Assembly (NCBI GenBank): GCA_048941265.1
Contig: JBHLNT010000008.1
Coordinates: 1,260 to 65,259, forward strand
Length of the DNA: 64,000 nucleotides
Direction of reading: 5' to 3'
From: Promethearchaeota archaeon
Lineage (GTDB): Archaea; Asgardarchaeota; Lokiarchaeia; Sigyniarchaeales; SOKP01
The notes under the pieces were generated by a model. The model made no database searches, had not been told where the DNA came from, and worked only from the letters and a program-made list of their open reading frames with translations. A program made the translations under genes and the position numbers. Positions 451 to 13,304 of this stretch are shown here, one piece after another. The stretch's first letter is position 1; each line of letters starts with the position of its first letter.

Positions 451-1098
451 TTAGGTTTGACTAATATGTTTGCTTATTTTTTCATTTAATTCTTCTATCC
501 TTTTAATTCTTGATTGGATTTGGGAATCCGATATCAGTGATTTATGGTTTTGCATTTGTTTGATTAACTCACTTATAATTTCATTTTTATAATCCATCAA
601 CTTCTTTAAGTTATTATACTTTTCTTCGTTTTGCAATGTTGTTTTTTTGAGATTATCCGATTCAAATTCTAATTTTTGTTGTTTGAGCTCTCTTATTATG
701 ATATCTTGCTTTCGGATTTTATCGTTTAAATCTTTCACTAAGATCTCTAATGGCTGCTTCTTCTCTTCGATTCTAATCACTGTCCCAGTATCCACTTTGG
801 TATATTTTTCAAGCTCACGTTGAGTTTGAGTCTTTTCCTTTCTTAATATACCCATCCTATTTTTTAAATCTCTTATTTCTCTAACTTTTTCCTCAAGTTC
901 AATTTCTAACTTTACTTCTCTTGTGCTCTTTTTTTTCTTCGAATCTTTTATATTTTCATCTTCGAGACATGATTCTAATTTCATAATAGTCTCTTCTAAC
1001 TGGTCAATTCTGTCGTATGAATCATATAATTCGCGTTCTTTAGCTTTAAATTCCTCCTCTAATTCCACAATTTTAGCATTTAAATCTTCTTCGGTCAA
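451..1098 (-). CDS. coiled-coil protein of unknown function
   Basis: 215-aa ORF with highly charged E/K/L-rich heptad-like composition. TTG start preceded by AGGAT. No enzymatic motif seen. Confidence 0.6.
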   Translation of the reverse strand: MTEEDLNAKIVELEEEFKAKERELYDSYDRIDQLEETIMKLESCLEDENIKDSKKKKSTREVKLEIELEEKVREIRDLKNRMGILRKEKTQTQRELEKYTKVDTGTVIRIEEKKQPLEILVKDLNDKIRKQDIIIRELKQQKLEFESDNLKKTTLQNEEKYNNLKKLMDYKNEIISELIKQMQNHKSLISDSQIQSRIKRIEELNEKISKHISQT

Positions 1099-1245
1099 TT
1101 TTTTATCCTAACTTTTTTTTTCACGAATTTCGTTTGAAATAATTGTAAAATAAGAGCTAAACCTTTTAGTAGAAAAATTTTTCGTTTTCCTTTTTTATTT
1201 AATCTACTTAATAATAGTGTGCACCTATTTAATATAGATCGAAAT

Positions 1246-3189
1246 CTAATATAGTTCGAAATCTTTTATATTGAATTTGTCTATTTTTTTCATAATAGGA
1301 ATTAAACTTAACAAGTTGAAAATGATCATTATTCCAAATAGACCAGCAATACCGATAAAAGGAAAATATAAAGGCGGCAAATAGGCACGATCGAATAAAA
1401 ATGTAGAATTTATTATCATTCCCAACGCTAAACTTAACAGAAGAGAGGGAATTATGACAAATAAAGATTCTAAGAATAAGATTCGCTTTAAAGACTTTTT
1501 TTTTGAGCCTAAAGCCCTCATAATTAAGAAATCTTTTGCTTTTTCTACTAATCCTGCTTTTTGATAGTTATATAAAGATAAAATTGAGATAATTGCCATT
1601 AAAATTATTAAAACAATCGGATAAATTGTTAAGTATGATAAGTAATTGATGTTTTGCTGGAAAATTTCGTCTAAACTTTTACAAGTAAATTCAGTACCTA
1701 ACTTCGCTCTTATAAAATCTTTTAGATCATCTTTTATATCACTATAAGCATCAGTCTTAAGCTCCAGTAAAACTAAATTGACTTCATTTGTAGTGAAATT
1801 TAAGCCTTCTTGAAATTCATTTAAGTCAATATATCCCGCATAACCACTATAAAAACTATCAATTATTACTCCGGAAATGTGAAATCTATGTCCTATATCT
1901 TTAATCTTCATACTTTGATCGAGGGGATAGTCAAAAAAATTATAAGCTAATCCATCACCTATAGTCATATTATCGTAAGCATCATCTTCATCAAACCATC
2001 TTCCTTCAATCTCAAAATCTTGTATAATCTCATCAGGATCAACACCAATAATAGGATAATTACCTTTTCTATCTTGACCGACTGTTCTATACCCACCTCC
2101 CCCTCCTCCTTCTTCTGAATAATAATAATATCCAATGAGTTCTTCAACATCACAGAATTTAATTAATCTTGCTTCAAATTTATCAACCTTATTAATATTT
2201 TCAATTTCTACAAGATCAGTTTTATTAAACATATATTTGGAGTCTGTAAAATTAATATCGTCCTCATCAACCGAAATCGAAGGATCAGAAAACATTTTAT
2301 ACATATCAGAATATTTATCAACAACATCTTCATGCCCTATAACTACGATATTTTCTCCTTGAGATTTTTTTATCCATTCCTGTGAAGAGGTATTTAACAC
2401 AAAGACACCTAAACCTAATGTAAAAATTATTAAAAATATTAATGAGAAGATAATAAAAAACCGTATAAATTCATTTTTTCTTCTGCTAGTATTTATTATC
2501 GCTATTTTTATATTGAATCCAAAGGTGGAAAGCCATCTTGGGATTATGCTAAGTTTTTTAGAAGCAAGCAGATTATGGGGAATGTCCTTTGAAAACGATT
2601 TTACTATTTTTTGATTTCCTATTCTCCTTAAAGAATACCCTGTTATCGCAAAAATTCCTATAATACAAGAAAAAAATAATATTGGAGTATAAACGTAATC
2701 AATTCGAAAAATAAGTTTAAATCCTAATATATTCATAATTAAAGCAAATATACCAAATGAAGCCAAACCAAGAATAAACCCCAAGATAAATCCAATCAAA
2801 AACATAAGGTAAGCTTCTAAAAGGTAAAATCCATATAATTTATCAGGTAAAGTACCCAAAGCTTTCATTATAGCGATATCTCTTTTCTTATGGATAACTA
2901 AAGTAGTGGTTATGACGACTACAACTGTAAAAGCTAGTACAATTACCAAAGTAATGATAAGAGTGTTAAATTGAGTGTATATTGCGTTAATTGCTCCTGA
3001 AAAATAATATTCATTATCAATATCTCCTTGATAAAAGATTTTATTTTGAACAATAAGATTCACTCCAAGAGAAATCGAAAAATAAATCAAAAATTCAGCG
3101 AGTGCTATGACTAAGGCAATGGTTAGTACATAGGGAAAATTCGATTTCCTTTTTCGATAAAAATCTTTTATGGCAAAATCTAAGGACAT
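1246..3189 (-). CDS. ABC transporter permease, FtsX/MacB-like with two FtsX-type modules and a large extracytoplasmic domain
   Basis: 647 aa with multiple TM segments. Two FtsX-like signatures are present (KRDIAIMKALG... and KDFLIMRALGSKKKSL). It lies immediately downstream of the ABC ATPase gene in the same orientation. Confidence 0.85.
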   Translation of the reverse strand: MSLDFAIKDFYRKRKSNFPYVLTIALVIALAEFLIYFSISLGVNLIVQNKIFYQGDIDNEYYFSGAINAIYTQFNTLIITLVIVLAFTVVVVITTTLVIHKKRDIAIMKALGTLPDKLYGFYLLEAYLMFLIGFILGFILGLASFGIFALIMNILGFKLIFRIDYVYTPILFFSCIIGIFAITGYSLRRIGNQKIVKSFSKDIPHNLLASKKLSIIPRWLSTFGFNIKIAIINTSRRKNEFIRFFIIFSLIFLIIFTLGLGVFVLNTSSQEWIKKSQGENIVVIGHEDVVDKYSDMYKMFSDPSISVDEDDINFTDSKYMFNKTDLVEIENINKVDKFEARLIKFCDVEELIGYYYYSEEGGGGGGYRTVGQDRKGNYPIIGVDPDEIIQDFEIEGRWFDEDDAYDNMTIGDGLAYNFFDYPLDQSMKIKDIGHRFHISGVIIDSFYSGYAGYIDLNEFQEGLNFTTNEVNLVLLELKTDAYSDIKDDLKDFIRAKLGTEFTCKSLDEIFQQNINYLSYLTIYPIVLIILMAIISILSLYNYQKAGLVEKAKDFLIMRALGSKKKSLKRILFLESLFVIIPSLLLSLALGMIINSTFLFDRAYLPPLYFPFIGIAGLFGIMIIFNLLSLIPIMKKIDKFNIKDFELY

Positions 3190-3208
3190 ATTTAATCAGG
3201 ACAATAAT

Positions 3209-3991
3209 TTATTCATTTTTTTTAAGTGAAATTACTTGCTCTTTTACTATTTTACCATCCTCAAAATCAATTATTCTATCAGCAAGATCGATTAAATATT
3301 CATCGTGTGTTGCAATTATTATTGTTTTACCTAACATTTTTAGATCCTTAAAAAGATTTCTTATTATTTCGGCAGAACTCTTGTCTAAATTCGCAGTGGG
3401 TTCATCTGCTAATATGATTGGAGGATCGTTTGCCAATGCTCGAGCTATCGCTACCCTTTGTTGCTCTCCTGCTGAGAGCTGAAATGGTAAATGTTCTCGC
3501 CGTTCTCCTAATCCTAATCTTTTTAACAACTTTACAGCAAGATCTCGAGCTTGTTTAAATACCACTCCCGCAAGATTCATAGGAAACATGACATTTTCTT
3601 CGGCTGTCAAGGTACTGATCAGATTATAATTTTGAAAAATAAATCCAGAATTAATAAGCCTAAAGGTAGCTAAAGATTCCTCTTCCATATCACTTATTTT
3701 AACTCCATGCTCATAAATTATACCTTTATCTTTCTCAGGTGAATCTAATCCACCAATTAAATTGAGAAGGGTGGTTTTTCCTGCGCCTGAAGGCCCTCTA
3801 ATGACAATAAATTCACCATTCCTTACTAATAGCGATACATCATCTACTGCTCTTACAATATATTCTCCGATATGATAATCTTTGACTAAGTTCTTGGCTT
3901 GAATAACAATTTCATCTTTCATTAAAGCAAGAACTTCGTCTGCTTCTTTGTCTTCCTCTAAATTTTTCTCTTCTTCTTTTTTTTTTCTCAC
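3209..3991 (-). CDS. ABC transporter ATP-binding protein (MacB/LolD-like)
   Basis: Walker A GPSGAGKTT, ABC signature LSAGEQQRVAIARAL, Walker B IILADEPT and H-loop ATHD are all present. The true start may be the internal ATG (MKDEIV...) rather than the GTG at 3991. Confidence 0.9.
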   Translation of the reverse strand: MRKKKEEEKNLEEDKEADEVLALMKDEIVIQAKNLVKDYHIGEYIVRAVDDVSLLVRNGEFIVIRGPSGAGKTTLLNLIGGLDSPEKDKGIIYEHGVKISDMEEESLATFRLINSGFIFQNYNLISTLTAEENVMFPMNLAGVVFKQARDLAVKLLKRLGLGERREHLPFQLSAGEQQRVAIARALANDPPIILADEPTANLDKSSAEIIRNLFKDLKMLGKTIIIATHDEYLIDLADRIIDFEDGKIVKEQVISLKKNE

Positions 3992-4508: not shown

Positions 4509-4757
4509 ATGAGTGAAAAAGAAAATATTGAAATAGTAAAAGAATTAGACACTACTGGATTATTTTGCCCAGAACCATTGTTTGAAGTTCGAAATTTGTC
4601 AGAGACGATCGAAGTGAATCAATGTTTTAAGGTTGTAGCCGACGATCCTGCTGCTGAAGAAGATTTACAGAGATGGGCAAAAAGAACTGGTACGGAAATC
4701 TTGGAATTCACAAATGAAGATGGTCTTTTAACATTTGTATTTAGAAAAAAAAAGTAG
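4509..4757 (+). CDS. TusA/SirA-like sulfur carrier protein
   Basis: 82 aa with the N-terminal Cys-Pro-x-Pro motif (GLFCPEPLFEV) typical of the TusA family. Confidence 0.8.
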   Translation: MSEKENIEIVKELDTTGLFCPEPLFEVRNLSETIEVNQCFKVVADDPAAEEDLQRWAKRTGTEILEFTNEDGLLTFVFRKKK

Positions 4758-4772
4758 GATGCATGAGAGAAG

Positions 4773-5138
4773 ATGAACGAAATTAAAAAATGGATCCTAT
4801 ATGTACAAACGAGCGATGCACCTGAGAGGCAATATTCACCTTTAGTGTTAGCGCAAACAGCAAAAGCTATGGATCTTGGAGCAAAGGTTTATTATTTAGG
4901 AACAGCATTAAAGATATTAAAGCCTGGAGAAGCCGAAAAAATAAAAATAGGAGATTTTCCTAGTGTAAAAGAAATGATTGATAAAACTTTAGAAATGGGT
5001 ATAGAAATTTTAGTGTGTGAAGCATCTAAAAGGATGTTAGGATGGGAAAAGGTAGAATTAATTTCAGGAGTAAAAATAGTGGGCGCTGCGACATTAAACG
5101 ATTTGGTGCTTGAAGCTGATGCTACACAGTGGTTTTAA
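4773..5138 (+). CDS. DsrE/DsrF-like sulfur relay family protein
   Basis: 121 aa. It has DsrE-like layout with a conserved Cys in ILVCEASKRMLG and sits adjacent to TusA. Confidence 0.7.
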   Translation: MNEIKKWILYVQTSDAPERQYSPLVLAQTAKAMDLGAKVYYLGTALKILKPGEAEKIKIGDFPSVKEMIDKTLEMGIEILVCEASKRMLGWEKVELISGVKIVGAATLNDLVLEADATQWF

Positions 5139-5216
5139 TTTTAAATTTATTTATAATTTTTGGATATGATATAATTATGATAAGAAATATAATAAAAAAG
5201 ATGGAGGAATGATACA

Positions 5217-6410
5217 ATGGACATTTATTTAGATTACCAAGCCGCAAAACCTGTGGATGAGAGAGTTTTATCAGAAATGTTCCCTTACTTTAATAAAAAA
5301 TTTGCAAATCCTTCTTCCTTGTATGGAGATGGAGACATTGCGACAGATATTTTAGAAAAATCTCGTGAAAAAGTTGCACATTTTATCAATGCCCCCGACG
5401 CTTCTGATATAATTTTTACATCATGTGCTACAGAATCAAATAATTTAGCTTTGATCGGCGCGGCTCAGAATCGTAAAAGGAAGGGAGATCATATCATCAT
5501 TTCAGAAATAGAGCATATATCAATTTTGAATCTTGCGAAAAATTTGGAGAGAGAAGGTTTCAAAGTGAGTAGGGTTCCTGTAGATCAATATGGGATTATT
5601 AATCTTGATAAGCTTGAGCGTTTAATTACTGATAAAACCATTTTAATTTCTGTTGCTTCAGCTAGTAATGAAGTAGGTTCATTGCAGCCAATTAAGGAAA
5701 TAAGCGAAATTGCCTCCGAAAAGAAAATTTTATTCCATACAGATGCGGTAGCAAGCGAAAGTTCTATACCTATAGACGTACAAAAAGTGCCTATTGATTT
5801 AATTACTTTATCTTCGAATGATATTTATGGCCCAAGAGGAGTAGGAGCTCTGTATTTGAAGAGAGGTGTTCGAGTAAATCCAACAATAATCGGTGGAGGT
5901 CAAGAGCGAGGGATAAGGTCAGGTTCAGAAAATGTACCAGGAATAGTAGGTTTTGCAAAGGCAGCTGAAATTATGAAAGAAGAAATGAGTTCTGAAGCAG
6001 AACGTCTCAAAAATTTAAGAGATAAAGTAATAAAAGGAGTATTGGAGACAATTCCTAAGTCGTATTTAAATGGACATCCTGAAAAAAGGCTTCCCAATAA
6101 TGCACATTTTAGATTTGATTATATTGAGGGAGAATCTTTAATTCTTGGTTTAAAAGATGAAAAAATTGCGGCAGCTACTGGTTCTGCGTGTACTTCAAAA
6201 ACCTTAGAAGCTTCTCATACATTAATAGCTATGGGTTTATTACATGAAGAGGCTCATGGTAGCTTATTATTATCTTTAGGAAGATTTACAAAAGAGGCCG
6301 ATATTGATAAAATTTTAGAAGCTTTACCCAATATAGTTAAAAGGTTAAGGATTTTATCACCCTTAACGCCTCCTGATTTAATAAAACAATATAAAGAGGT
6401 GGATAGTTAA
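5217..6410 (+). CDS. iscS: IscS/NifS-family class-V aminotransferase fold protein lacking the PLP-binding lysine
   Basis: TSCATESNNLAL, HTDAV and the active-site loop GSACTS are all present. The canonical SGHK(I/L)YGPKG motif reads SSNDIYGPRG, so Lys is replaced by Asp202 (codon 5820..5822). A GGAGG SD lies 10 nt upstream. Confidence 0.85.
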   Translation: MDIYLDYQAAKPVDERVLSEMFPYFNKKFANPSSLYGDGDIATDILEKSREKVAHFINAPDASDIIFTSCATESNNLALIGAAQNRKRKGDHIIISEIEHISILNLAKNLEREGFKVSRVPVDQYGIINLDKLERLITDKTILISVASASNEVGSLQPIKEISEIASEKKILFHTDAVASESSIPIDVQKVPIDLITLSSNDIYGPRGVGALYLKRGVRVNPTIIGGGQERGIRSGSENVPGIVGFAKAAEIMKEEMSSEAERLKNLRDKVIKGVLETIPKSYLNGHPEKRLPNNAHFRFDYIEGESLILGLKDEKIAAATGSACTSKTLEASHTLIAMGLLHEEAHGSLLLSLGRFTKEADIDKILEALPNIVKRLRILSPLTPPDLIKQYKEVDS

Positions 6411-7223
6411 ATGAAATCAACAAATTATTCAGAAAAAGTATTAGATCATTTTCGAAATCCGAGAAATGTTGGAGTAATTGAAAATCCGGATGGATATGGG
6501 AAAGTTGGAAATCCTGTATGTGGAGATCTAATGGAAATGTTTATTACTGTAGGAAAAAACGATAAAGGAGAAGAAATTATAGACGATATTAAATTTAGAA
6601 CATTTGGATGCGGTTCAGCTGTTTCTACATCATCAATGGTTACTGAAATGGCAAAAGGTAAAACTCTTGATGAAGCATATAAAATTACCAGGCAAGACGT
6701 TGCTGATGAACTTGATGGATTACCCCCTATTAAAATGCATTGTTCTAACTTAGCTGCAGATGCCTTACAAGCTGCAATACGAAATTATCGCGAAGGGACT
6801 AAACCAGAGGTGGAAGTCATGACGTCCTGTCAGATAGATATACAAGTCATTTTAGGTGTTGATGAATTTCTTGGTAAAGGAGTGTACAAAGAAGTTGAGG
6901 ATTTAACTGAATTTAAAAATAAGAGAGTTTTAGTCTTAGACTCGGGTGATAATTCTTTAGATCTTGCTCTTAAATTAACAGAATACACAGGAAGAGTCAT
7001 AGTAGTGACTTCTGCGAAAGAAATTCCGGGTAATCCTGACTTAAAAAACAAATTGAAACACTCAGATGTCAAAATACTCCAACAATCAGAACTTTTGGAA
7101 ATTAAAGGTGAAACTAACGAAGTTGAGAAAGTTGTCATTCATGATTTTGATGAAGACGAAAATTATGAACTTTTTATAGATGCTGTTATAATTCTGGATG
7201 AAAGACAACCTAAATTAAGCTAA
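6411..7223 (+). CDS. iscU: IscU/NifU-type Fe-S scaffold fused to a degenerate thioredoxin-reductase-like NAD(P)H-domain
   Basis: The N-terminal ~130 aa carry the three scaffold Cys motifs (NPVCGD, FGCGSA, MHCSNLA). The C-terminal ~135 aa follow the TrxR central-domain pattern, but CxxC is replaced (GVYKEVED) and GGGxxA is degenerate (DSGDNSL). Confidence 0.85.
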   Translation: MKSTNYSEKVLDHFRNPRNVGVIENPDGYGKVGNPVCGDLMEMFITVGKNDKGEEIIDDIKFRTFGCGSAVSTSSMVTEMAKGKTLDEAYKITRQDVADELDGLPPIKMHCSNLAADALQAAIRNYREGTKPEVEVMTSCQIDIQVILGVDEFLGKGVYKEVEDLTEFKNKRVLVLDSGDNSLDLALKLTEYTGRVIVVTSAKEIPGNPDLKNKLKHSDVKILQQSELLEIKGETNEVEKVVIHDFDEDENYELFIDAVIILDERQPKLS

Positions 7224-7472
7224 AAAAATTTTTTTATTCTAAATTTTTTTTGAAATTTTTATTATTCAAATAAAAAATTAATTAAATGTTCGTTATATTT
7301 GAACAAAATATTTGTAATTAGGTTTATTTTTATATTTTTTTTGATATTATAAGGTAAATTATAAACTATAATTTGATTACGATTTATTGATTTTAAAAAA
7401 AGTCTCAGGGGTTTTGTGGTAAGTTCCTTTCTTACTTCTACCTAAGGATAAATTAGATAGATTAAATCAACT

Positions 7473-8582
7473 ATGCCGAAAATAGAAAAATTGAAAGAAT
7501 CTGAAGAGATATGTTGTTTAATCTCGGAATACACAGATGATTTAATTATGATCTATGATAATAATTTTAAGATCGAATATACAAATTCGCAAACTCATTC
7601 TAAAGTGTTGGGTTATCCCCCTAAAAAGTTTTATAGAATGTCTTTTAGAGGTTCAATAGTTCATAAAGATGATAGATTACAAGTTACTCAAGCATTAAAA
7701 GAAAGACATGCTAAAGGTTATCATATAAATCAGCAGAGAGTAAAACATAAAAATGGTCATTATTTATGGTTTGAGACTATTGGAAAGGCTTTTTTAGATG
7801 AAAATGGGATACAAAAAATGCTATGTATATCAAGAAATATTACAAAAATAAAGAATACTGAAAAAAAATTCCAAGATGCTTACAATCGGGCAAAATTTTA
7901 TAGAGATCTCGTAGTCCATGATATTAACAATATTTTACATAATATAAGTCTCTCAACAGAATTGGCTATGAGGGGAGTAAATGATGATAATATACCAACA
8001 TCTATCGAAGATCTTCTGAATACCATCACATATCAGCTTGAAAGGGGAAATAATTTAATTGAAAATATAACAAAAATTTCTAAAATGGAGGAAAACCAAC
8101 CAAATTTGGTAAGAATTGATGTTCTTTCCATTCTTAATAATGTGATAGATTCTATAGTAAATATGTCAAAATATTCAGAAGTATCTATAAAAATTGAAAC
8201 TGATCTCAAAAATATTCATGTACTTGCTAACGAGTTTCTTATAGATGTCTTTGAAAATATAATTATTAATGGTATAAAGCATAATGATAATGAAAAAGTA
8301 AGAATTGAGATTAAAGTGTTAAAAATTTTGAAAGCTAATACTGATTATATTAGATTTGAATTTCGTGACAACGGGCGAGGTATTCCTGATGCAGCTAAAA
8401 AAAATATTTTTAAACGAAATTATAATATTAAAGGGAAGAAAAGTGGAATGGGAATCGGACTTTCTTTGGTTAAAAAAATTATAGAAACGTGCAAGGGAAA
8501 TATATATATCGAAGACTGTGTAAAAGGCGATTATTCGAAAGGAAGTAATTTTATTGTTGAATTTATTGCTTCTAATAGTTAA
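7473..8582 (+). CDS. PAS-domain sensor histidine kinase (no cognate response regulator adjacent)
   Basis: H-box VVHDINNILHNI, N-box IINGIKHN, G1 DNGRGIP and G2 GMGIGLSLV are present. The N-terminal ~120 aa are PAS-like. Confidence 0.85.
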   Translation: MPKIEKLKESEEICCLISEYTDDLIMIYDNNFKIEYTNSQTHSKVLGYPPKKFYRMSFRGSIVHKDDRLQVTQALKERHAKGYHINQQRVKHKNGHYLWFETIGKAFLDENGIQKMLCISRNITKIKNTEKKFQDAYNRAKFYRDLVVHDINNILHNISLSTELAMRGVNDDNIPTSIEDLLNTITYQLERGNNLIENITKISKMEENQPNLVRIDVLSILNNVIDSIVNMSKYSEVSIKIETDLKNIHVLANEFLIDVFENIIINGIKHNDNEKVRIEIKVLKILKANTDYIRFEFRDNGRGIPDAAKKNIFKRNYNIKGKKSGMGIGLSLVKKIIETCKGNIYIEDCVKGDYSKGSNFIVEFIASNS

Positions 8583-8850
8583 AGTTAGATTAACGGCAGG
8601 AAGCCAATCTAAAATAAATTATTATTATAAAAATAGATTTTGTTTAACCTACTTCTTCATTTTAATTATAATCTTTTTAATTCATAAACAATTCCTAACG
8701 AAATCTATGTTAGAAAATATTAGCTAATTTCAGAATTTACATTTTATAAGAATTATCTTAAAAAAGCATATTTAATCTTAAGAAGTAAAGTAGTGAACTA
8801 GTAATGCATAACTAAAAGTGAAAAATAAGAAAAAAAATGATGAGAAAATT

Positions 8851-11226
8851 ATGAAGAAAGTAGTAATTGTTGGTGGGGTTGCTGGCGGCGCATCCGCAGC
8901 AGCTCGTCTTAGAAGATTAAGAGAAGATTACGAAATAATTATGCTTGATAAAGGTCCTTACGTATCTTTCGCCAATTGTGGATTACCATATTATGTTGGA
9001 AATGTAATCAAGGATAGAGAATCATTAGAATTGGTTACGCCCGAGAGATTTCTTGTACGGTTCAATATTGATGTAAGGGTGAATAACGAGGCAATTTCAA
9101 TCAATAAGAACAACAAAAAGGTTAAGGTAAGAGATTTACAGAAAATGCAAGAATATGAACTTGATTACGATTACTTAATTCTTGCTACAGGTTCACAACC
9201 GATAGTTCCCTCTTTTAAAGGATTAGATTCTGTACCTTATTTTACCATATGGACGATTCCTGATGCTGTAAAAATTAGAGATTTTGTGGAAAAGAATAGA
9301 ATTAACCATGCGGTCATTATAGGTGGCGGATTTATAGGTTTAGAAATGGCGGAAAATTTAGTGGAGAATGGTGTGAAAGTAAAAATTGTAGAGATGCTTG
9401 ATCAGGTAATGCCCCCGATTGACAAAGAGATTGCCCAGTTCATTCATCAGGAGCTAATTTTAAATGGAGTGTGCTTAGTTCTAGAGGATCCTGTAGAATC
9501 TTTTGGAAGAACTAATGAAGATAGGCCTTATGTGAAAACCAAAAGTGGTCGTACAATTGAAACAGATTTAGTAATATTAGCAATAGGAATTAGACCACAA
9601 AGTCAGCTAGCAAAAGGAGCTGGATTAGATTTAGGACAAAAAGGCCATATAATCGTTAATGATTATATGCAAAGTTCAGATACTAATATATATGCTGTAG
9701 GAGATGCCGTTCAAGTGCTGCATTATCAAACCAAAGATCCAATAGCAATCGCATTGGCAGGTCCTGCTAATAAGCAAGGCAGAATCGCAGCAGATAATAT
9801 AGCAGGAAGAGAATCTAAATATAAAGGTATTTTAGGAGCTTCAGTTGCAAAAGTATTTGATGTGAGTGTGGCAAATGTAGGTTTAACAGAAAAACAGCTC
9901 AAAAATATTGAAATTAATTATGAGAAAGTATATGTCCATCCTAATAATCACGCCGGATATTATCCTGGGGCTGTTCCCATGGCATTTAAACTTCTTTTTG
10001 AAGTCCCTACCGGTAAAGTTTTAGGAGCTCAAATTGTGGGAGGTCAGGGTACGGAAAAGAGAATAGATGTGATATCTACAATAATAAAAATGGGAGGGAC
10101 AGTGTTTGATTTAGAAGAATTGGAATTAACTTATGCTCCCCCTTACAGCTCAGCAAAAGATCCCGTGAATATGGCTGGTTTTGTGGCAGCAAACTTCCTC
10201 AAAGGAGATATGCCTATTTGGCATTGGCATGATGTTGATAAACTTAAAAATAATGGCGTAGTATTATTGGATGTGAGAACAATAGAAGAACATGAAGCTA
10301 GAGCCATCGAGGGATCAATAAATATTCCTATTGAAGATTTAAGAGATAGGCTGGGGGAACTTCCAAAAAACAAACCTATCTATACTTATTGTGAGGTTGG
10401 ATATAGAAGCTATTTAGCAACACGATTACTTCTGCAGCAAGGATTTAAAGAAGTATACGACCTGACTGGCGGATACAAATTATATGAAATGGCTAGTGCT
10501 ACATGTGAAGAAATTGTTGCCTCCTGCGGAGGATTTGAGGCTCAAATGGAGACATTCGTAAAAGAAAAGGCAATGGAGGACGACGAGCTTGTTAAAGTGG
10601 ATGCTTGTGGATTAAGCTGTCCGGGTCCCTTAAACGCATTAATTAAGGGACTTGAAACGCTACCAAAGGGCAAAAAATTGAAAGTATATGCTACAGATCC
10701 AGGATTTAAATCAAGCGTGGAAGCATATACTAAATTAAATAAAGCAATTGAATTACTATATTTAGGAAAAGAAGAAGGAAAGCTAGTAGCGACATTAAAG
10801 AAAGGATTAATATTACAAGAGGAAATTGCTGCACCTATAAAGGTTGAAAAGAAAACAAGGAAAGAAAGTAGAACACCAGATGCACCAGCATTATCAGTGA
10901 TAAGTGCTGATGAATTATATGGAAGACTTGAATCAGATGATGCCCCTTCTATTTTAATTGATGTACGCACTCCTCAGGAATATAATGGTATAGGAAGTCA
11001 TATTACATCTGCTAAATTACTACCATTAGGGGAATTGATGAATAATATTGACGTTCTTAAAGATTATAAAGATGATGAAGTAGTTACTATTTGTCATAGT
11101 GGAGCACGATCAATGATGGCAGCTCAATTTTTAGTACAAGCTGGTTTCAAAGACGTAAGAAATTTAACGGGTGGCATGATGATGTGGCATCGTAAGGGAT
11201 ACCCCGTTGCGAAAGAATATGATTAA
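8851..11226 (+). CDS. CoA-disulfide/NADH-oxidase-family flavoprotein fused to rhodanese, TusA-like and second rhodanese domains
   Basis: FAD motif VVIVGGVAGGASAA, redox Cys SFANCGLPYY, NAD motif VIIGGGFIGLE and AVGDA define the flavoprotein part. Downstream are a rhodanese loop YCEVGYRS, a TusA motif DACGLSCPGP and a second rhodanese loop ICHSGARS. The ORF opens at GTG 8818; I prefer ATG 8851 (MKKVVIVGG). Confidence 0.85.
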   Translation: MKKVVIVGGVAGGASAAARLRRLREDYEIIMLDKGPYVSFANCGLPYYVGNVIKDRESLELVTPERFLVRFNIDVRVNNEAISINKNNKKVKVRDLQKMQEYELDYDYLILATGSQPIVPSFKGLDSVPYFTIWTIPDAVKIRDFVEKNRINHAVIIGGGFIGLEMAENLVENGVKVKIVEMLDQVMPPIDKEIAQFIHQELILNGVCLVLEDPVESFGRTNEDRPYVKTKSGRTIETDLVILAIGIRPQSQLAKGAGLDLGQKGHIIVNDYMQSSDTNIYAVGDAVQVLHYQTKDPIAIALAGPANKQGRIAADNIAGRESKYKGILGASVAKVFDVSVANVGLTEKQLKNIEINYEKVYVHPNNHAGYYPGAVPMAFKLLFEVPTGKVLGAQIVGGQGTEKRIDVISTIIKMGGTVFDLEELELTYAPPYSSAKDPVNMAGFVAANFLKGDMPIWHWHDVDKLKNNGVVLLDVRTIEEHEARAIEGSINIPIEDLRDRLGELPKNKPIYTYCEVGYRSYLATRLLLQQGFKEVYDLTGGYKLYEMASATCEEIVASCGGFEAQMETFVKEKAMEDDELVKVDACGLSCPGPLNALIKGLETLPKGKKLKVYATDPGFKSSVEAYTKLNKAIELLYLGKEEGKLVATLKKGLILQEEIAAPIKVEKKTRKESRTPDAPALSVISADELYGRLESDDAPSILIDVRTPQEYNGIGSHITSAKLLPLGELMNNIDVLKDYKDDEVVTICHSGARSMMAAQFLVQAGFKDVRNLTGGMMMWHRKGYPVAKEYD

Positions 11227-11282
11227 CTTACATCAAAATCTATTTTTTTAACCTACTTATTTATTTTAAATTATTGGGCTTA

Positions 11283-11298
11283 TTCGAACATGTTCGAA
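11283..11298. promoter_or_regulatory. perfect 16-nt palindrome TTCGAACATGTTCGAA upstream of the cooS-like gene (candidate operator)
   Basis: Read directly from the sequence. It is self-complementary and flanked by the partly symmetric CTTAT...ATAAG. It lies ~100 nt upstream of the TTG start at 11400. Confidence 0.3.
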
Positions 11299-11399
11299 AA
11301 TAAGTATATTTTCCAAGGGAATATCAATAATTTAGAGATGGAACTTTTATAAAGTAATCTGTCTTAATAATTTTTTAATAAATTAGTGAGGTGTAGAAA

Positions 11400-13304
11400 T
11401 TGGAAGGTGAAAGATTATCTTATCATGAATCAGTACGCAAGGTTTATGAAAGAATTAAAAAGGATGGCATGATTAATATTTGGGATCGTTTTGAAGCACA
11501 GGGATTTGGAGGTGTGCCCGATAAAAGATGTCCCTTTTGTTTAAAAGGTGCTCGATGTGATTTATGCTCTAATGGTCCTTGTAGGGCGGACGCTTCTATT
11601 GATAAAAGAGGAGTATGTGGAATTACCGCAGATGGGATGGCAATGCGAATGATGTTACTTAGAAATGTATTAGGGGCATCTACTTACCATTATCATACAG
11701 AAACGACAATTAAAACGCTTAAAGCCACAGCTGAGGGTAAAACTTCTTATAAAATTAGCGAACCAGAAAAGCTAAAAAGTTTTGCTAAACGACTTGGAGT
11801 TGATATCTCTGGTTCAAATAAAGAAATTGCATTACGTTTATGTGAATTTGTAAAAGAAGATTTTAATAGAGCTTACAATGAGCCAAGTAAAATAGTAGAA
11901 GCTTTAGCACCCCCAGAAAGGAAAGAAGTGTGGAAAAAATTAAATGTATTTCCAGGGGGGATTTATGGGGAAATGATGTTGGCTACTAGCTCATGTCTTA
12001 CAAATATAGATGGATATTATGCCAGCTTGGCACTTAAAGCCATGAGATTAGGGGTGGCTATGGCATATCAGAGTCAAATTGTCAATGAGTTTTGTCAAGA
12101 TATTCTATTTAATGTCCCTAAACCCCATAAAATGCGAGTAAACTTAGGTGTTTTAGACCCTGATTATGTGAACGTACTTCCCAATGGACATGAACCATTT
12201 TTGGGATTTGCAATGGTTCAATTGGCACGCAAACCAGAATGGCAAGAAAAGGCTAAAGCAGTAGGAGCCAAGGGATTAAGAATCATTGCAAACATAGAAA
12301 CTGGGCAAGAAATGATACAGCGATGGGAAATGGATGACGTATTTTATGGTTTTACAGGAAATTGGATTATGCAAGAAGCAATATTGGCAAGTGGTTGTAT
12401 TGATGCATTCGTATGTGATATGAACTGTTCAATGCCAATCGATCCGATTTATGCTAAAAGATATAAATTTAAACTCATTCCAGTATCAGAAGTCGTAGCT
12501 TTTGAGGGTATTAGTGAAAGATTAGATTATATCCCTGAAAAAGCTGAAGAACAGGCGGGAAAGCTCTTACAAATGGCTATAGATAATTTCAAGGAACGAA
12601 GAGCAAATATTAAACCGGTGACGGGATTAGGGATGAATGAAGCAATAGTTGGATTTTCAACTGAAAGTATAGTGGCAGCACTTGGTGGTAGTATTGAACC
12701 ATTATTAGGGGCTATAAAAGATGGGACAATACGTGGTGTGGCTGGGCTTGTTTCTTGTACAACCCTACGAGATTATGGACAGGATGTACATACCATTAAT
12801 ATCACTAAAGAGTTAATCAAAAGAGATATCTTAGTATTATCAATGGGATGTGGTAATGGAGCGTTACAAGTGGCAGGTCTTTGTTCTCTTGAAGCAAAGA
12901 ATTTAGCAGGAGCAGGCCTAAAATCCTTATGTGAAAAGTTAAGCATTCCACCCGTGTTGAGTTATGGTACATGCACAGATACAGGAAGGGTAGCTGATCT
13001 AATAGGAGCTATATCTAAAGCGCTTGGAGGGGTTCCTATTCCTGATCTCCCTATAGTAGCGGCAGCTCCTGAATATATGGAACAAAAGGCAACGATAGAT
13101 GCGATCTTTGCATTAGCATTTGGACTTTACACATACGTTAATCCCGTGCCTACTGTTACTGGAGGGCCTGACTTAGTTAAATTATTAACTGTTGATTGCA
13201 AGGATGTTACAGGAGGTATCTTGCATGTTGAAACAGACTCAGTTCAAGCCGTTGATGCTATGGTTGCTCATATAGAGGCCAATCGAAAAAAAATGGGTAT
13301 TTAA
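11400..13304 (+). CDS. cooS: CooS-type anaerobic carbon-monoxide dehydrogenase family protein with non-canonical C-cluster ligand set
   Basis: 634 aa. The N-terminal Cys cluster CPFCLKGARCDLCSNGPCR...GVCGITADG matches the B/D-cluster region. C-cluster-region motifs are NGHEP, DMNCSMP, GLVSCT, SMGCGN and YGTCTDTGR. Where canonical CooS has GICCTGNE, this protein has ANIETGQE. GAGGTG SD lies 6 nt before the TTG start. Confidence 0.8.
   Translation: MEGERLSYHESVRKVYERIKKDGMINIWDRFEAQGFGGVPDKRCPFCLKGARCDLCSNGPCRADASIDKRGVCGITADGMAMRMMLLRNVLGASTYHYHTETTIKTLKATAEGKTSYKISEPEKLKSFAKRLGVDISGSNKEIALRLCEFVKEDFNRAYNEPSKIVEALAPPERKEVWKKLNVFPGGIYGEMMLATSSCLTNIDGYYASLALKAMRLGVAMAYQSQIVNEFCQDILFNVPKPHKMRVNLGVLDPDYVNVLPNGHEPFLGFAMVQLARKPEWQEKAKAVGAKGLRIIANIETGQEMIQRWEMDDVFYGFTGNWIMQEAILASGCIDAFVCDMNCSMPIDPIYAKRYKFKLIPVSEVVAFEGISERLDYIPEKAEEQAGKLLQMAIDNFKERRANIKPVTGLGMNEAIVGFSTESIVAALGGSIEPLLGAIKDGTIRGVAGLVSCTTLRDYGQDVHTINITKELIKRDILVLSMGCGNGALQVAGLCSLEAKNLAGAGLKSLCEKLSIPPVLSYGTCTDTGRVADLIGAISKALGGVPIPDLPIVAAAPEYMEQKATIDAIFALAFGLYTYVNPVPTVTGGPDLVKLLTVDCKDVTGGILHVETDSVQAVDAMVAHIEANRKKMGI

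Follow-up and report, generated by a model that had tools for sequence, protein, structure and literature searches.

Sulfur carriers encoded beside a lysine-less IscS-IscU pair in a Lokiarchaeial genome and its relatives

How does an iron-sulfur (Fe-S) cluster scaffold obtain its sulfur when the IscS-like protein encoded next to it has lost the lysine that holds pyridoxal phosphate (PLP)? The question is raised by a locus in the Promethearchaeota archaeon assembly GCA_048941265.1 (Lokiarchaeia, order Sigyniarchaeales). The window, that is, the whole stretch of 64,000 nucleotides analysed here (contig JBHLNT010000008.1, positions 1,260 to 65,259), belongs to a 5.0-Mb assembly that is 91% complete and is called G000 among its relatives (G001, G007 etc.). 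In this window genes for a TusA-like and a DsrE-like sulfur carrier directly precede those for a lysine-less IscS and for the scaffold IscU; wherever a gene order is given below, iscS stands for the lysine-less form. An initial annotation had read the locus as a persulfide relay for Fe-S assembly. This overall reading is partly supported: the linkage of the core genes stands, while a role for the neighbouring kinase, cysteine independence as a necessity and conservation of the cooS gene beyond the two nearest species do not.

The four-gene unit is widespread in anaerobes. It is a lysine-less IscS-IscU pair of the minimal IscS-IscU system (MIS) type with built-in sulfur carriers, to which this instance adds a flavoprotein neighbour at the level of the genus. 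Recent reviews describe both the sulfur donor and the electron donor of minimal archaeal systems as unidentified, and treat MIS as an active desulfurase plus a scaffold (PMC13066941, PMC12192291). Lysine-less IscS has so far been a curiosity of Archaeoglobus fulgidus and of one Methanosarcina paralogue. The linkage described below points to small, readily purified proteins as candidate sulfur donors, so that the sulfur source becomes open to direct test, among others with the A. fulgidus pair, for which crystals exist, and in M. acetivorans, which is amenable to genetics. How Asgard archaea, the closest known relatives of eukaryotes, build their Fe-S clusters is a further matter that the linkage touches.

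The four-gene core and its proteins

Genes were called with Pfam, NCBIfam and the translations of the window open reading frames (ORFs), seven of which, all on the same strand, span positions 4509-13304. The core comprises the following features:

4509..4757, + strand: tusA-like sulfur carrier, 82 aa, Cys20 in CPEP; Pfam TusA E 4e-18
4773..5138, + strand: dsrE-like sulfur carrier, 121 aa, single Cys82 in VCEAS; Pfam DsrE E 4e-13
5217..6410, + strand: iscS, IscS/NifS fold without the PLP lysine, A. fulgidus IscS2 type; Aminotran_5 E 3e-76, PDB 4EB5 E 5e-136
5817..5822, + strand: codons of Asn201-Asp202, which replace His-Lys (the Schiff-base lysine), from the translation; the Asp202 codon is 5820-5822
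6189..6191, + strand: codon of Cys325 in the GSAC loop, invariant in 36 aligned lysine-less homologues
6411..6812, + strand: iscU scaffold domain (Cys37, Asp39, Cys66, His109/Cys110 region, LPPIK); Pfam NifU_N E 3e-45
6813..7223, + strand: C-terminal tail of IscU, a remnant of the NAD(P)H domain of thioredoxin-reductase-like flavoproteins; profile match to 2ZBW, E 7e-16
7224..7260, + strand: T-rich tract 3' of iscU, the likely end of the four-gene transcript, with position conserved in the two nearest species

The intergenic gaps from tusA to iscU are only 15, 78 and 0 nt, iscU starting at the base that directly follows the iscS stop codon. All six genes named in the initial annotation, from tusA to the flavoprotein gene, and their motifs were recovered by Pfam and in the translations, and they do lie on one strand throughout. 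Nevertheless, the co-directional run of six genes is not one operon, because the tightly packed tusA-iscU segment is followed by the T-rich tract, the kinase gene beyond it is flanked by wide spacers (249 and 268 nt) and the flavoprotein gene has an upstream region of its own. The core operon is tusA-dsrE-iscS-iscU.

The translation of iscS bears out the annotated loss of the PLP lysine and retention of the loop cysteine (GSACTS). The motif LSSNDIYGPRG stands at the site of SGHKIYGPKG in IscS, so that the Schiff-base lysine is replaced by Asp202 and the preceding histidine by asparagine, whereas the GSAC325TS loop is preserved. Among solved structures the closest is that of A. fulgidus IscS2 (PDB 4EB5, E 5e-136 over residues 4-383); SSNDIYGP occurs there too (ISSNDIYGPKG in A. 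fulgidus), and an Asp-to-Lys variant (Asp199Lys) of that protein is available as PDB 4R5F. Moreover, the protein scores below the NCBIfam equivalog cut-offs for NifS/IscS (TIGR03402, 480 against 530.75 bits; TIGR02006, 402 against 643); with the score under the cut-off and the PLP lysine missing, it is not a canonical NifS/IscS cysteine desulfurase. It does have the features of the A. fulgidus IscS2 type: a class-V fold, the aspartate in SSND, the loop cysteine and an adjacent iscU. In 36 lysine-less homologues the PLP-pocket residues of the ATES loop, His100 and Asp176 are invariant and the glutamine of IscS is alanine, and the lysine site reads ND or NE in all 30 orthologues of the order.

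A 'desulfurase-dead' IscS of this kind is the already published A. fulgidus IscS2 type and not a new observation. A. fulgidus IscS2 is reported to have no desulfurase activity, owing to the lysine substitution, a defect shared by M. acetivorans IscS1 (Deere et al. 2020, PMC7585200, citing Marinoni 2012, Yamanaka 2013 and Pagnier 2014). The loop cysteine of A. fulgidus IscS2 is reported to serve as the fourth ligand of the IscU cluster (PMC7585200; repeated in a 2026 review, PMC13066941). By analogy with this orthologue, for which the loss is reported, the window protein probably neither binds PLP nor desulfurates cysteine. The published pair (4EB5, 4EB7, 4HVK, 4R5F) and the window pair share an orthologous IscS (~63% identical), the same motif, the same cysteine loop and an adjacent IscU; they differ in that the window IscU has a tail like thioredoxin reductase (TrxR), whereas the Archaeoglobi IscU is of ~150-170 aa, and in that a flavoprotein gene follows in the window. 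Published work on the A. fulgidus pair left the carrier genes out of consideration.

Among the 150 cluster representatives nearest to the window IscS, 18 are without the lysine, with many different replacements. In a quick FastTree tree of 139 representatives the lysine state must change at least 8 times, and supported branches force at least 4 of these changes, so that the loss is clustered but was probably not single. A single origin was therefore set aside, as far as a tree made with FastTree only can tell.

The IscU protein (gene 6411-7223) has the three cluster cysteines, the aspartate and the histidine, in the motifs NPVCGD, FGCGSA and MHCSNLA of the translation, and it scores above the cut-off of the scaffold family NCBIfam TIGR03419 (NifU_clost; 192.4 against 187.9 bits). 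Its C-terminal tail comprises ~135 residues. A profile built from 27 such tails matches residues 130-247 of 2ZBW (E 7e-16) and then many chains of TrxR and of TrxR-like ferredoxin-NADP reductase (FNR); the part matched is the domain that binds NAD(P)H. The dinucleotide GxGxxA loop is degenerate in the tail (DSGDNS versus GGGDSA), and neither a CxxC motif nor an FAD domain was found in it. The tail is present in the Asgard families f1, f2, f6 and f11 and IscU is short elsewhere, although an IscU of similar length to the tailed form occurs in several bacterial loci. That the tail serves for docking is a guess.

Both carriers match their Pfam families and keep the active-site cysteine. TusA, with the motif GLFCPEP, reaches 65.5 bits against a Pfam cut-off of 28.6, and its Cys20, Pro21 and Pro23 are invariant in 35 homologues; it lies under the cut-off of the E. 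coli-type TusA equivalog of NCBIfam (43.6 against 78). The DsrE-like protein, with the motif LVCEAS, reaches 50 bits against a Pfam cut-off of 22.7 and lies under the NCBIfam DsrE2 equivalog (32 against 210). Its nearest solved structure is 3MC3 (SSO1125, of the DsrE3A type; E 1e-11), with which the first cysteine is aligned and the second DsrE3A cysteine is missing, and its active-site cysteine is kept in all 28 copies of the order. The families are the same as in the E. coli relay IscS-TusA-TusBCD and in the thiosulfonate relay DsrE3A-TusA of Metallosphaera cuprina, with a single active cysteine each, but the second cysteine of DsrE3A is absent from the window protein. In E. coli sulfur leaves an active IscS toward tRNA, whereas the window IscS is presumably inactive, so that the flow here is probably inward.

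Linkage of the carriers to lysine-less IscS

The four-gene core is conserved well beyond the window. The order supplied 30 loci, each from a different genome (four families), and in every one the iscS orthologue is followed by a long IscU; TusA lies upstream of iscS in 29 loci and the DsrE-like gene in 28, with the carrier cysteines invariant. In a 300-genome sample of the phylum the DsrE-like gene occurs in 161 genomes, and the order tusA-dsrE-iscS-iscU was found again in fetched regions of the Asgard families f6, f7, f8, f11 and f16, of which f7 includes Odinarchaeum, where the lysine site is Asn-Ser.

The linkage extends across both prokaryotic domains. One genome per prokaryote species was scanned for DNA able to encode SSN[DE]xYGPxGxG, which gave at least 119 hits, 116 of them in real IscS homologues. 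Carriers were counted within 2.5 kb where at least 900 nt of upstream sequence were available (82 loci), and IscU within 1.5 kb in 95 loci. Among the matches listed, TusA and/or DsrE stand beside 77 of the 82 lysine-less IscS genes (TusA 74, DsrE 57, both 54), and IscU adjoins 76 of the 95. The archaeal matches listed come from Bathyarchaeia, Asgard groups, Thermoplasmatota, Methanosarcinales, Methanotrichaceae, Methanocellales, Methanoperedens, Hadarchaeota and Geoglobus, and the bacterial ones from Aminicenantes, Deltaproteobacteria, Actinomycetota, WOR-3, Stahlbacteria, Zixibacteria and others. As a control, 20 lysine-bearing (xHK) IscS paralogues of the same order were inspected, and 18 of them have neither carrier within 3 kb on each side; of the two exceptions, one lies 3.4 kb from the lysine-less module, and the carrier-like genes near the other are weak and encoded on the opposite strand. 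The carrier linkage is thus shown to be specific to lysine-less, and not to lysine-bearing, IscS across both domains.

The published lysine-less systems fall in the same pattern. In Archaeoglobi TusA and/or DsrE lie upstream in 13 of 13 fetched IscS loci. In one of them (2,178,400-bp genome) the protein matches 4EB5 over all 382 residues (838.7 bits) and stands between a dsrE-like gene and iscU, and a paralogue of the crystallised A. fulgidus IscS2 shows the full order tusA-dsrE-iscS-iscU. The isc1 cluster of M. acetivorans (MA0806-MA0811) holds the same four genes, namely MA0810 (SirA-like), MA0809 (DrsE-superfamily), MA0808 (IscS1, without PLP residues) and MA0807 (an enlarged IscU1 of 24.2 kDa) (PMC7585200, Fig. 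S1 legend). Its extra genes were there described as 'genes of unknown function', and, unlike the window locus, no CoADR-type (CoA-disulfide reductase) gene is mentioned for it (PMC7585200). The MIS of Garcia et al. is likewise a pair of a desulfurase-like protein and a scaffold in anaerobic archaea (reviews PMC13066941, PMC12192291); it was described with an active cysteine desulfurase and without chaperones or carriers, whereas the window operon lacks the lysine and has two carriers. Among the papers covered by a literature search, none was found that interprets the linkage of carriers with lysine-less IscS.

Carriers also accompany some lysine-less enzymes with other replacements: the Ser-Ala type (P0132) lies in dsrE-iscS-iscU and a bacterial Gln-Gly type (P0153) in iscS-dsrE-tusA. 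The initial annotation had put forward conservation of the gene neighbourhood as a check, and it holds for the core in the loci of the order, in the matches listed and in Archaeoglobi; for the flavoprotein gene it is only local, for the kinase it fails and for cooS it largely fails.

Several variants of the module were also met. In family f17 (L079:3472-4149, L080:3449-4126; one record is Atabeyarchaeum) a lysine-bearing SufS-like gene (SIHKMCGPSG), and not iscU, comes after tusA-dsrE-iscS. In one locus (L275:3501-6239) the gene after a Ser-Asp-type lysine-less IscS is that of IscU, and a second gene of the class-V aminotransferase fold comes next; neither TusA nor DsrE is present. One Archaeoglobi genome (L291:3435-4930) has an IscS with His-Gln (SAHQFYGPKG) for His-Lys beside IscU and a TusA-like gene without the CPxP cysteine. 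Finally, two genomes of family f16 (L076:5572-5913; L077:3137-3478) carry a DsrE-like gene 73-75% identical to the window copy without IscS, TusA or IscU beside it, and a more divergent DsrE-like copy inside a normal module.

Origin and direction of the sulfur

The best explanation, to which we give about an even chance of being right, is that the four-gene unit is a minimal IscS-IscU pair of the A. fulgidus IscS2 kind which is fed by the carriers. With the PLP lysine replaced by aspartate, IscS would be unable to make persulfide from cysteine; it would instead hold IscU and offer Cys325 both as sulfur acceptor and as fourth cluster ligand. TusA and the DsrE-like protein would bring sulfane sulfur on their invariant cysteines, probably in the order DsrE-like protein, TusA and then Cys325 of IscS or IscU itself. 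This order follows precedent, all of its transfer steps being inferred: DsrE3A gives sulfur to TusA with no back-transfer (PMC11094781), and in E. coli the transfer from IscS to TusA is established, with contact between the two proteins (PMC13066941). Delivery by the carriers to Cys325 or to IscU is therefore a reasonable inference from gene linkage and precedent. The flavoprotein, which the unit does not require, may tie this sulfur pool to NAD(P)H and to the chemistry of CoA-persulfide or polysulfide. A complex prediction for the window IscS with TusA, made with both alignments, scored 0.01 and is evidence neither way.

Several points weigh against carrier-fed assembly. Gene linkage gives no direction of sulfur flow. 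Free sulfide has been proposed as the sulfur source in A. fulgidus, which would make carriers unneeded. The Gln-Gln, Asn-Gln and Ser-Asp lysine-less types have no carrier nearby in the loci inspected and, among the matches listed, DsrE is missing beside ~30% and TusA beside ~10% of lysine-less IscS genes. As to the flavoprotein, 10 of the 24 other genomes in the window family yielded none while keeping the core, several of these being 96-100% complete; where present, its gene has its own upstream region, and it lies elsewhere in family f2 and in G017. In G019 and G009 rubrerythrin and desulfoferrodoxin genes lie 3' of it, which suggests a stress role instead. Furthermore, the module is an additional system and not the sole route, and cysteine could still be the ultimate source of its sulfur.

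This last point arises from the other Fe-S genes of the genome. On contig C71 the window genome encodes a lysine-bearing IscS/NifS (SASAHKIYGPKG), with a short IscU 8 kb away, and elsewhere two more IscU-like genes (three further IscU-like genes in all) and a SufB-like gene. A lysine-bearing IscS-type or SufS-type enzyme is found in most relatives as well, in family f17 directly beside the module. The initial annotation had proposed a cysteine-independent supply and suggested a search of the genome for a lysine-bearing IscS; as one was found, together with the other IscU copies and SufB, cysteine independence is not needed.

The lysine-bearing IscS/NifS could itself load TusA from cysteine. 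In a cysteine-dependent relay of this sort, TusA and DsrE would carry the sulfur on to the lysine-less IscS and IscU, which would form a second, carrier-fed scaffold. The presence of such an enzyme in the window genome and most relatives, the SufS-like gene adjoining the module in family f17, the second class-V enzyme after IscU in the Ser-Asp-type locus and the established E. coli transfer (PMC13066941) all speak for it. Yet 18 of the 20 lysine-bearing paralogues have no carriers beside them, and in G010 (91% complete), the only such relative, no IscS- or SufS-type lysine-bearing enzyme was found. The habitats, to judge from sample types only, are sulfidic sediments in which sulfide is plentiful. 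On balance we regard this relay as rather unlikely.

Another possibility is that the IscS-IscU pair builds clusters directly from free sulfide. The carriers and the flavoprotein would then not feed the scaffold but handle persulfides and polysulfides, by buffering or detoxification, or shield the scaffold from redox stress. Sulfide is the accepted sulfur source of minimal systems in methanogens (PMC7585200, PMC12192291), the flavoprotein core groups with persulfide and polysulfide reductases (3NTA, 8A56), and the rubrerythrin and desulfoferrodoxin genes of G019 and G009 are matched in G011 by an AhpD-like gene after iscU. What direct sulfide use leaves unexplained is why carriers stand beside lysine-less IscS in 77 of 82 cases (among the matches listed) against 2 of 20 for the lysine-bearing form, and why they are packed into the operon ahead of iscS. 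We consider it unlikely, a shade more so than the preceding possibility.

Sulfur might also run outward, the IscS-IscU pair or IscS alone passing it to TusA and DsrE for tRNA or cofactor thiolation, as in E. coli IscS-TusA-TusBCD. The combination of IscS, TusA and a DsrE-family protein is indeed that of the Tus pathway (general knowledge; PMC13066941), but this IscS would be unable to generate the sulfur itself, the conserved block showed neither TusE nor MnmA nor any other acceptor gene, and DsrE3A-type proteins donate to TusA and not the reverse (PMC11094781). Outward flow is accordingly very improbable, and carrier-fed assembly is the reading retained in what follows.

The flavoprotein and other neighbours

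Downstream of the core the window holds four further features:

7473..8582, + strand: PAS histidine kinase (PAS-HisKA-HATPase), a lineage-specific insertion, missing at the site in all relatives examined
8640..8850, + strand: conserved upstream region of the flavoprotein gene, which aligns with the iscU-flavoprotein spacer of G007 and G001
8851..11226, + strand: CoADR-type flavoprotein extended by rhodanese, TusA and rhodanese modules, accessory to the core; PDB 3ICR E 3e-179, also 3NTA and 8A56
11400..13304, + strand: cooS-family gene, a neighbour outside the unit; NCBIfam TIGR01702, 734 bits against a cut-off of 478

The flavoprotein, which the initial annotation had placed in the relay, has the architecture and the cysteines described there: a Pyr_redox_2 and a dimerisation domain, a rhodanese domain, a TusA module and a second rhodanese domain. 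Its start is most likely the ATG at 8851, which gives 791 aa as in the database copy P0298 and the homologues, the open frame beginning at a GTG at 8818. Residues 12-560 align end to end with 3ICR, 3NTA and 8A56 (E 3e-179 to 1e-141; 3ICR E 3e-179 over 12-557). Cys54 (SFANCG), Cys525, Cys601 and Cys759 are invariant in 114 homologues, nearly all of them Asgard-labelled; word-index searches with the lysine-less IscS and with the flavoprotein tail were dominated by near relatives, of at least 64% identity. The protein falls just under the NCBIfam equivalog for CoA-disulfide reductase (504 against 578.8), and it has the disulfide reductase core, the single redox cysteine and the C-terminal rhodanese cysteine of the family formed by CoADR with rhodanese (CoADR-RHD; Bacillus anthracis, 3ICR), Npsr (Shewanella loihica, 3NTA) and CoA-persulfide reductase (Enterococcus faecalis, 8A56). 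The first 560 residues are alike in these proteins, with redox and rhodanese cysteines kept, whereas the window flavoprotein adds the C-terminal TusA and second rhodanese modules and adjoins an Fe-S operon in some Lokiarchaeia. It may catalyse the NAD(P)H-dependent reduction of CoA persulfide or polysulfide.

Its linkage to iscU is only local. Within a 41-genome sample of the order, the four-module flavoprotein occurs in 14 of the 24 other genomes of the window family (15 with the window genome). The gene comes directly after iscU in about 8 of these 15, with G007, G001, G019, G009, G005, G006 and G012 among the relatives. In G024 a receiver domain and a CheB-like gene intervene and the distance is 1.3 kb, in G020 it is 8 kb, and in G017 and family f2 the gene is remote from iscU or on a different contig. 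The spacer from iscU is always of at least 130 nt, and conservation with the two nearest species (G007 and G001) covers ~200 nt ahead of the flavoprotein gene. The genes that follow it vary, with cooS in G000, G007 and G001 and a thiolase plus an acyl-CoA-synthetase-like gene in G005. The flavoprotein gene is thus probably a separately transcribed neighbour, frequent in a few Lokiarchaeial genera, and is compatible with feeding the relay as well as with a role in persulfide or redox stress; as a link confined to a few genera, it offers a secondary hypothesis only.

The fullest form of that hypothesis joins the flavoprotein, the carriers and the dead IscS-IscU pair in a complete PLP-independent line with no cysteine desulfurase, in which NAD(P)H and CoA would mobilise sulfur from polysulfide, elemental sulfur or CoA-persulfide onto the rhodanese and TusA modules, from which it would pass to DsrE, TusA and finally Cys325 of IscS and IscU. 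We judge such a line improbable. In G011 the AhpD-like (CMD) gene after iscU is accompanied by a DUF302 gene; with the rubrerythrin and desulfoferrodoxin genes of G019 and G009 (L103:10895-11975 and L104:4328-5399 for these neighbours), this hints at a context of redox stress.

The kinase gene is found at this site only in the window genome, the nearest species (IscS 88-89% identical) joining iscU straight to the flavoprotein gene. Its best match in relatives is 42% identical and lies elsewhere, and its family has 11 members in the window genome. Around the gene no flanking repeats of a mobile element were found. The insertion is not an assembly error, because contigs of another sample and of another study bridge both the iscU-kinase and the kinase-flavoprotein junctions. 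The kinase is a recent chance insertion. A part as regulator of the operon, which the initial annotation had allowed for, was discarded: relatives have no orthologue at the site or elsewhere, the paralogous family is large, and nothing supports a regulatory tie. Two signalling inserts have been seen in the same iscU-flavoprotein spacer, this PAS histidine kinase and, in G024 (L107:4065-5201), the receiver domain with the CheB-like methylesterase, and in a bacterium a PAS kinase lies divergent to a lysine-less IscS (L273:1178-3118).

The gene at 11400 was correctly named as a CooS-like Fe-S enzyme, as its score on TIGR01702 attests. It is syntenic only in G007 and G001, the two nearest species; its candidacy as a client encoded in the unit was dropped on that ground, and the cooS-family gene is a bystander. 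Upstream of tusA, on the minus strand (window 451-3991), lies a divergent set composed of an FtsX-type permease, an ABC ATPase and a 215-aa protein without a Pfam match, which is syntenic in G007, G001, G019, G005 and G011.

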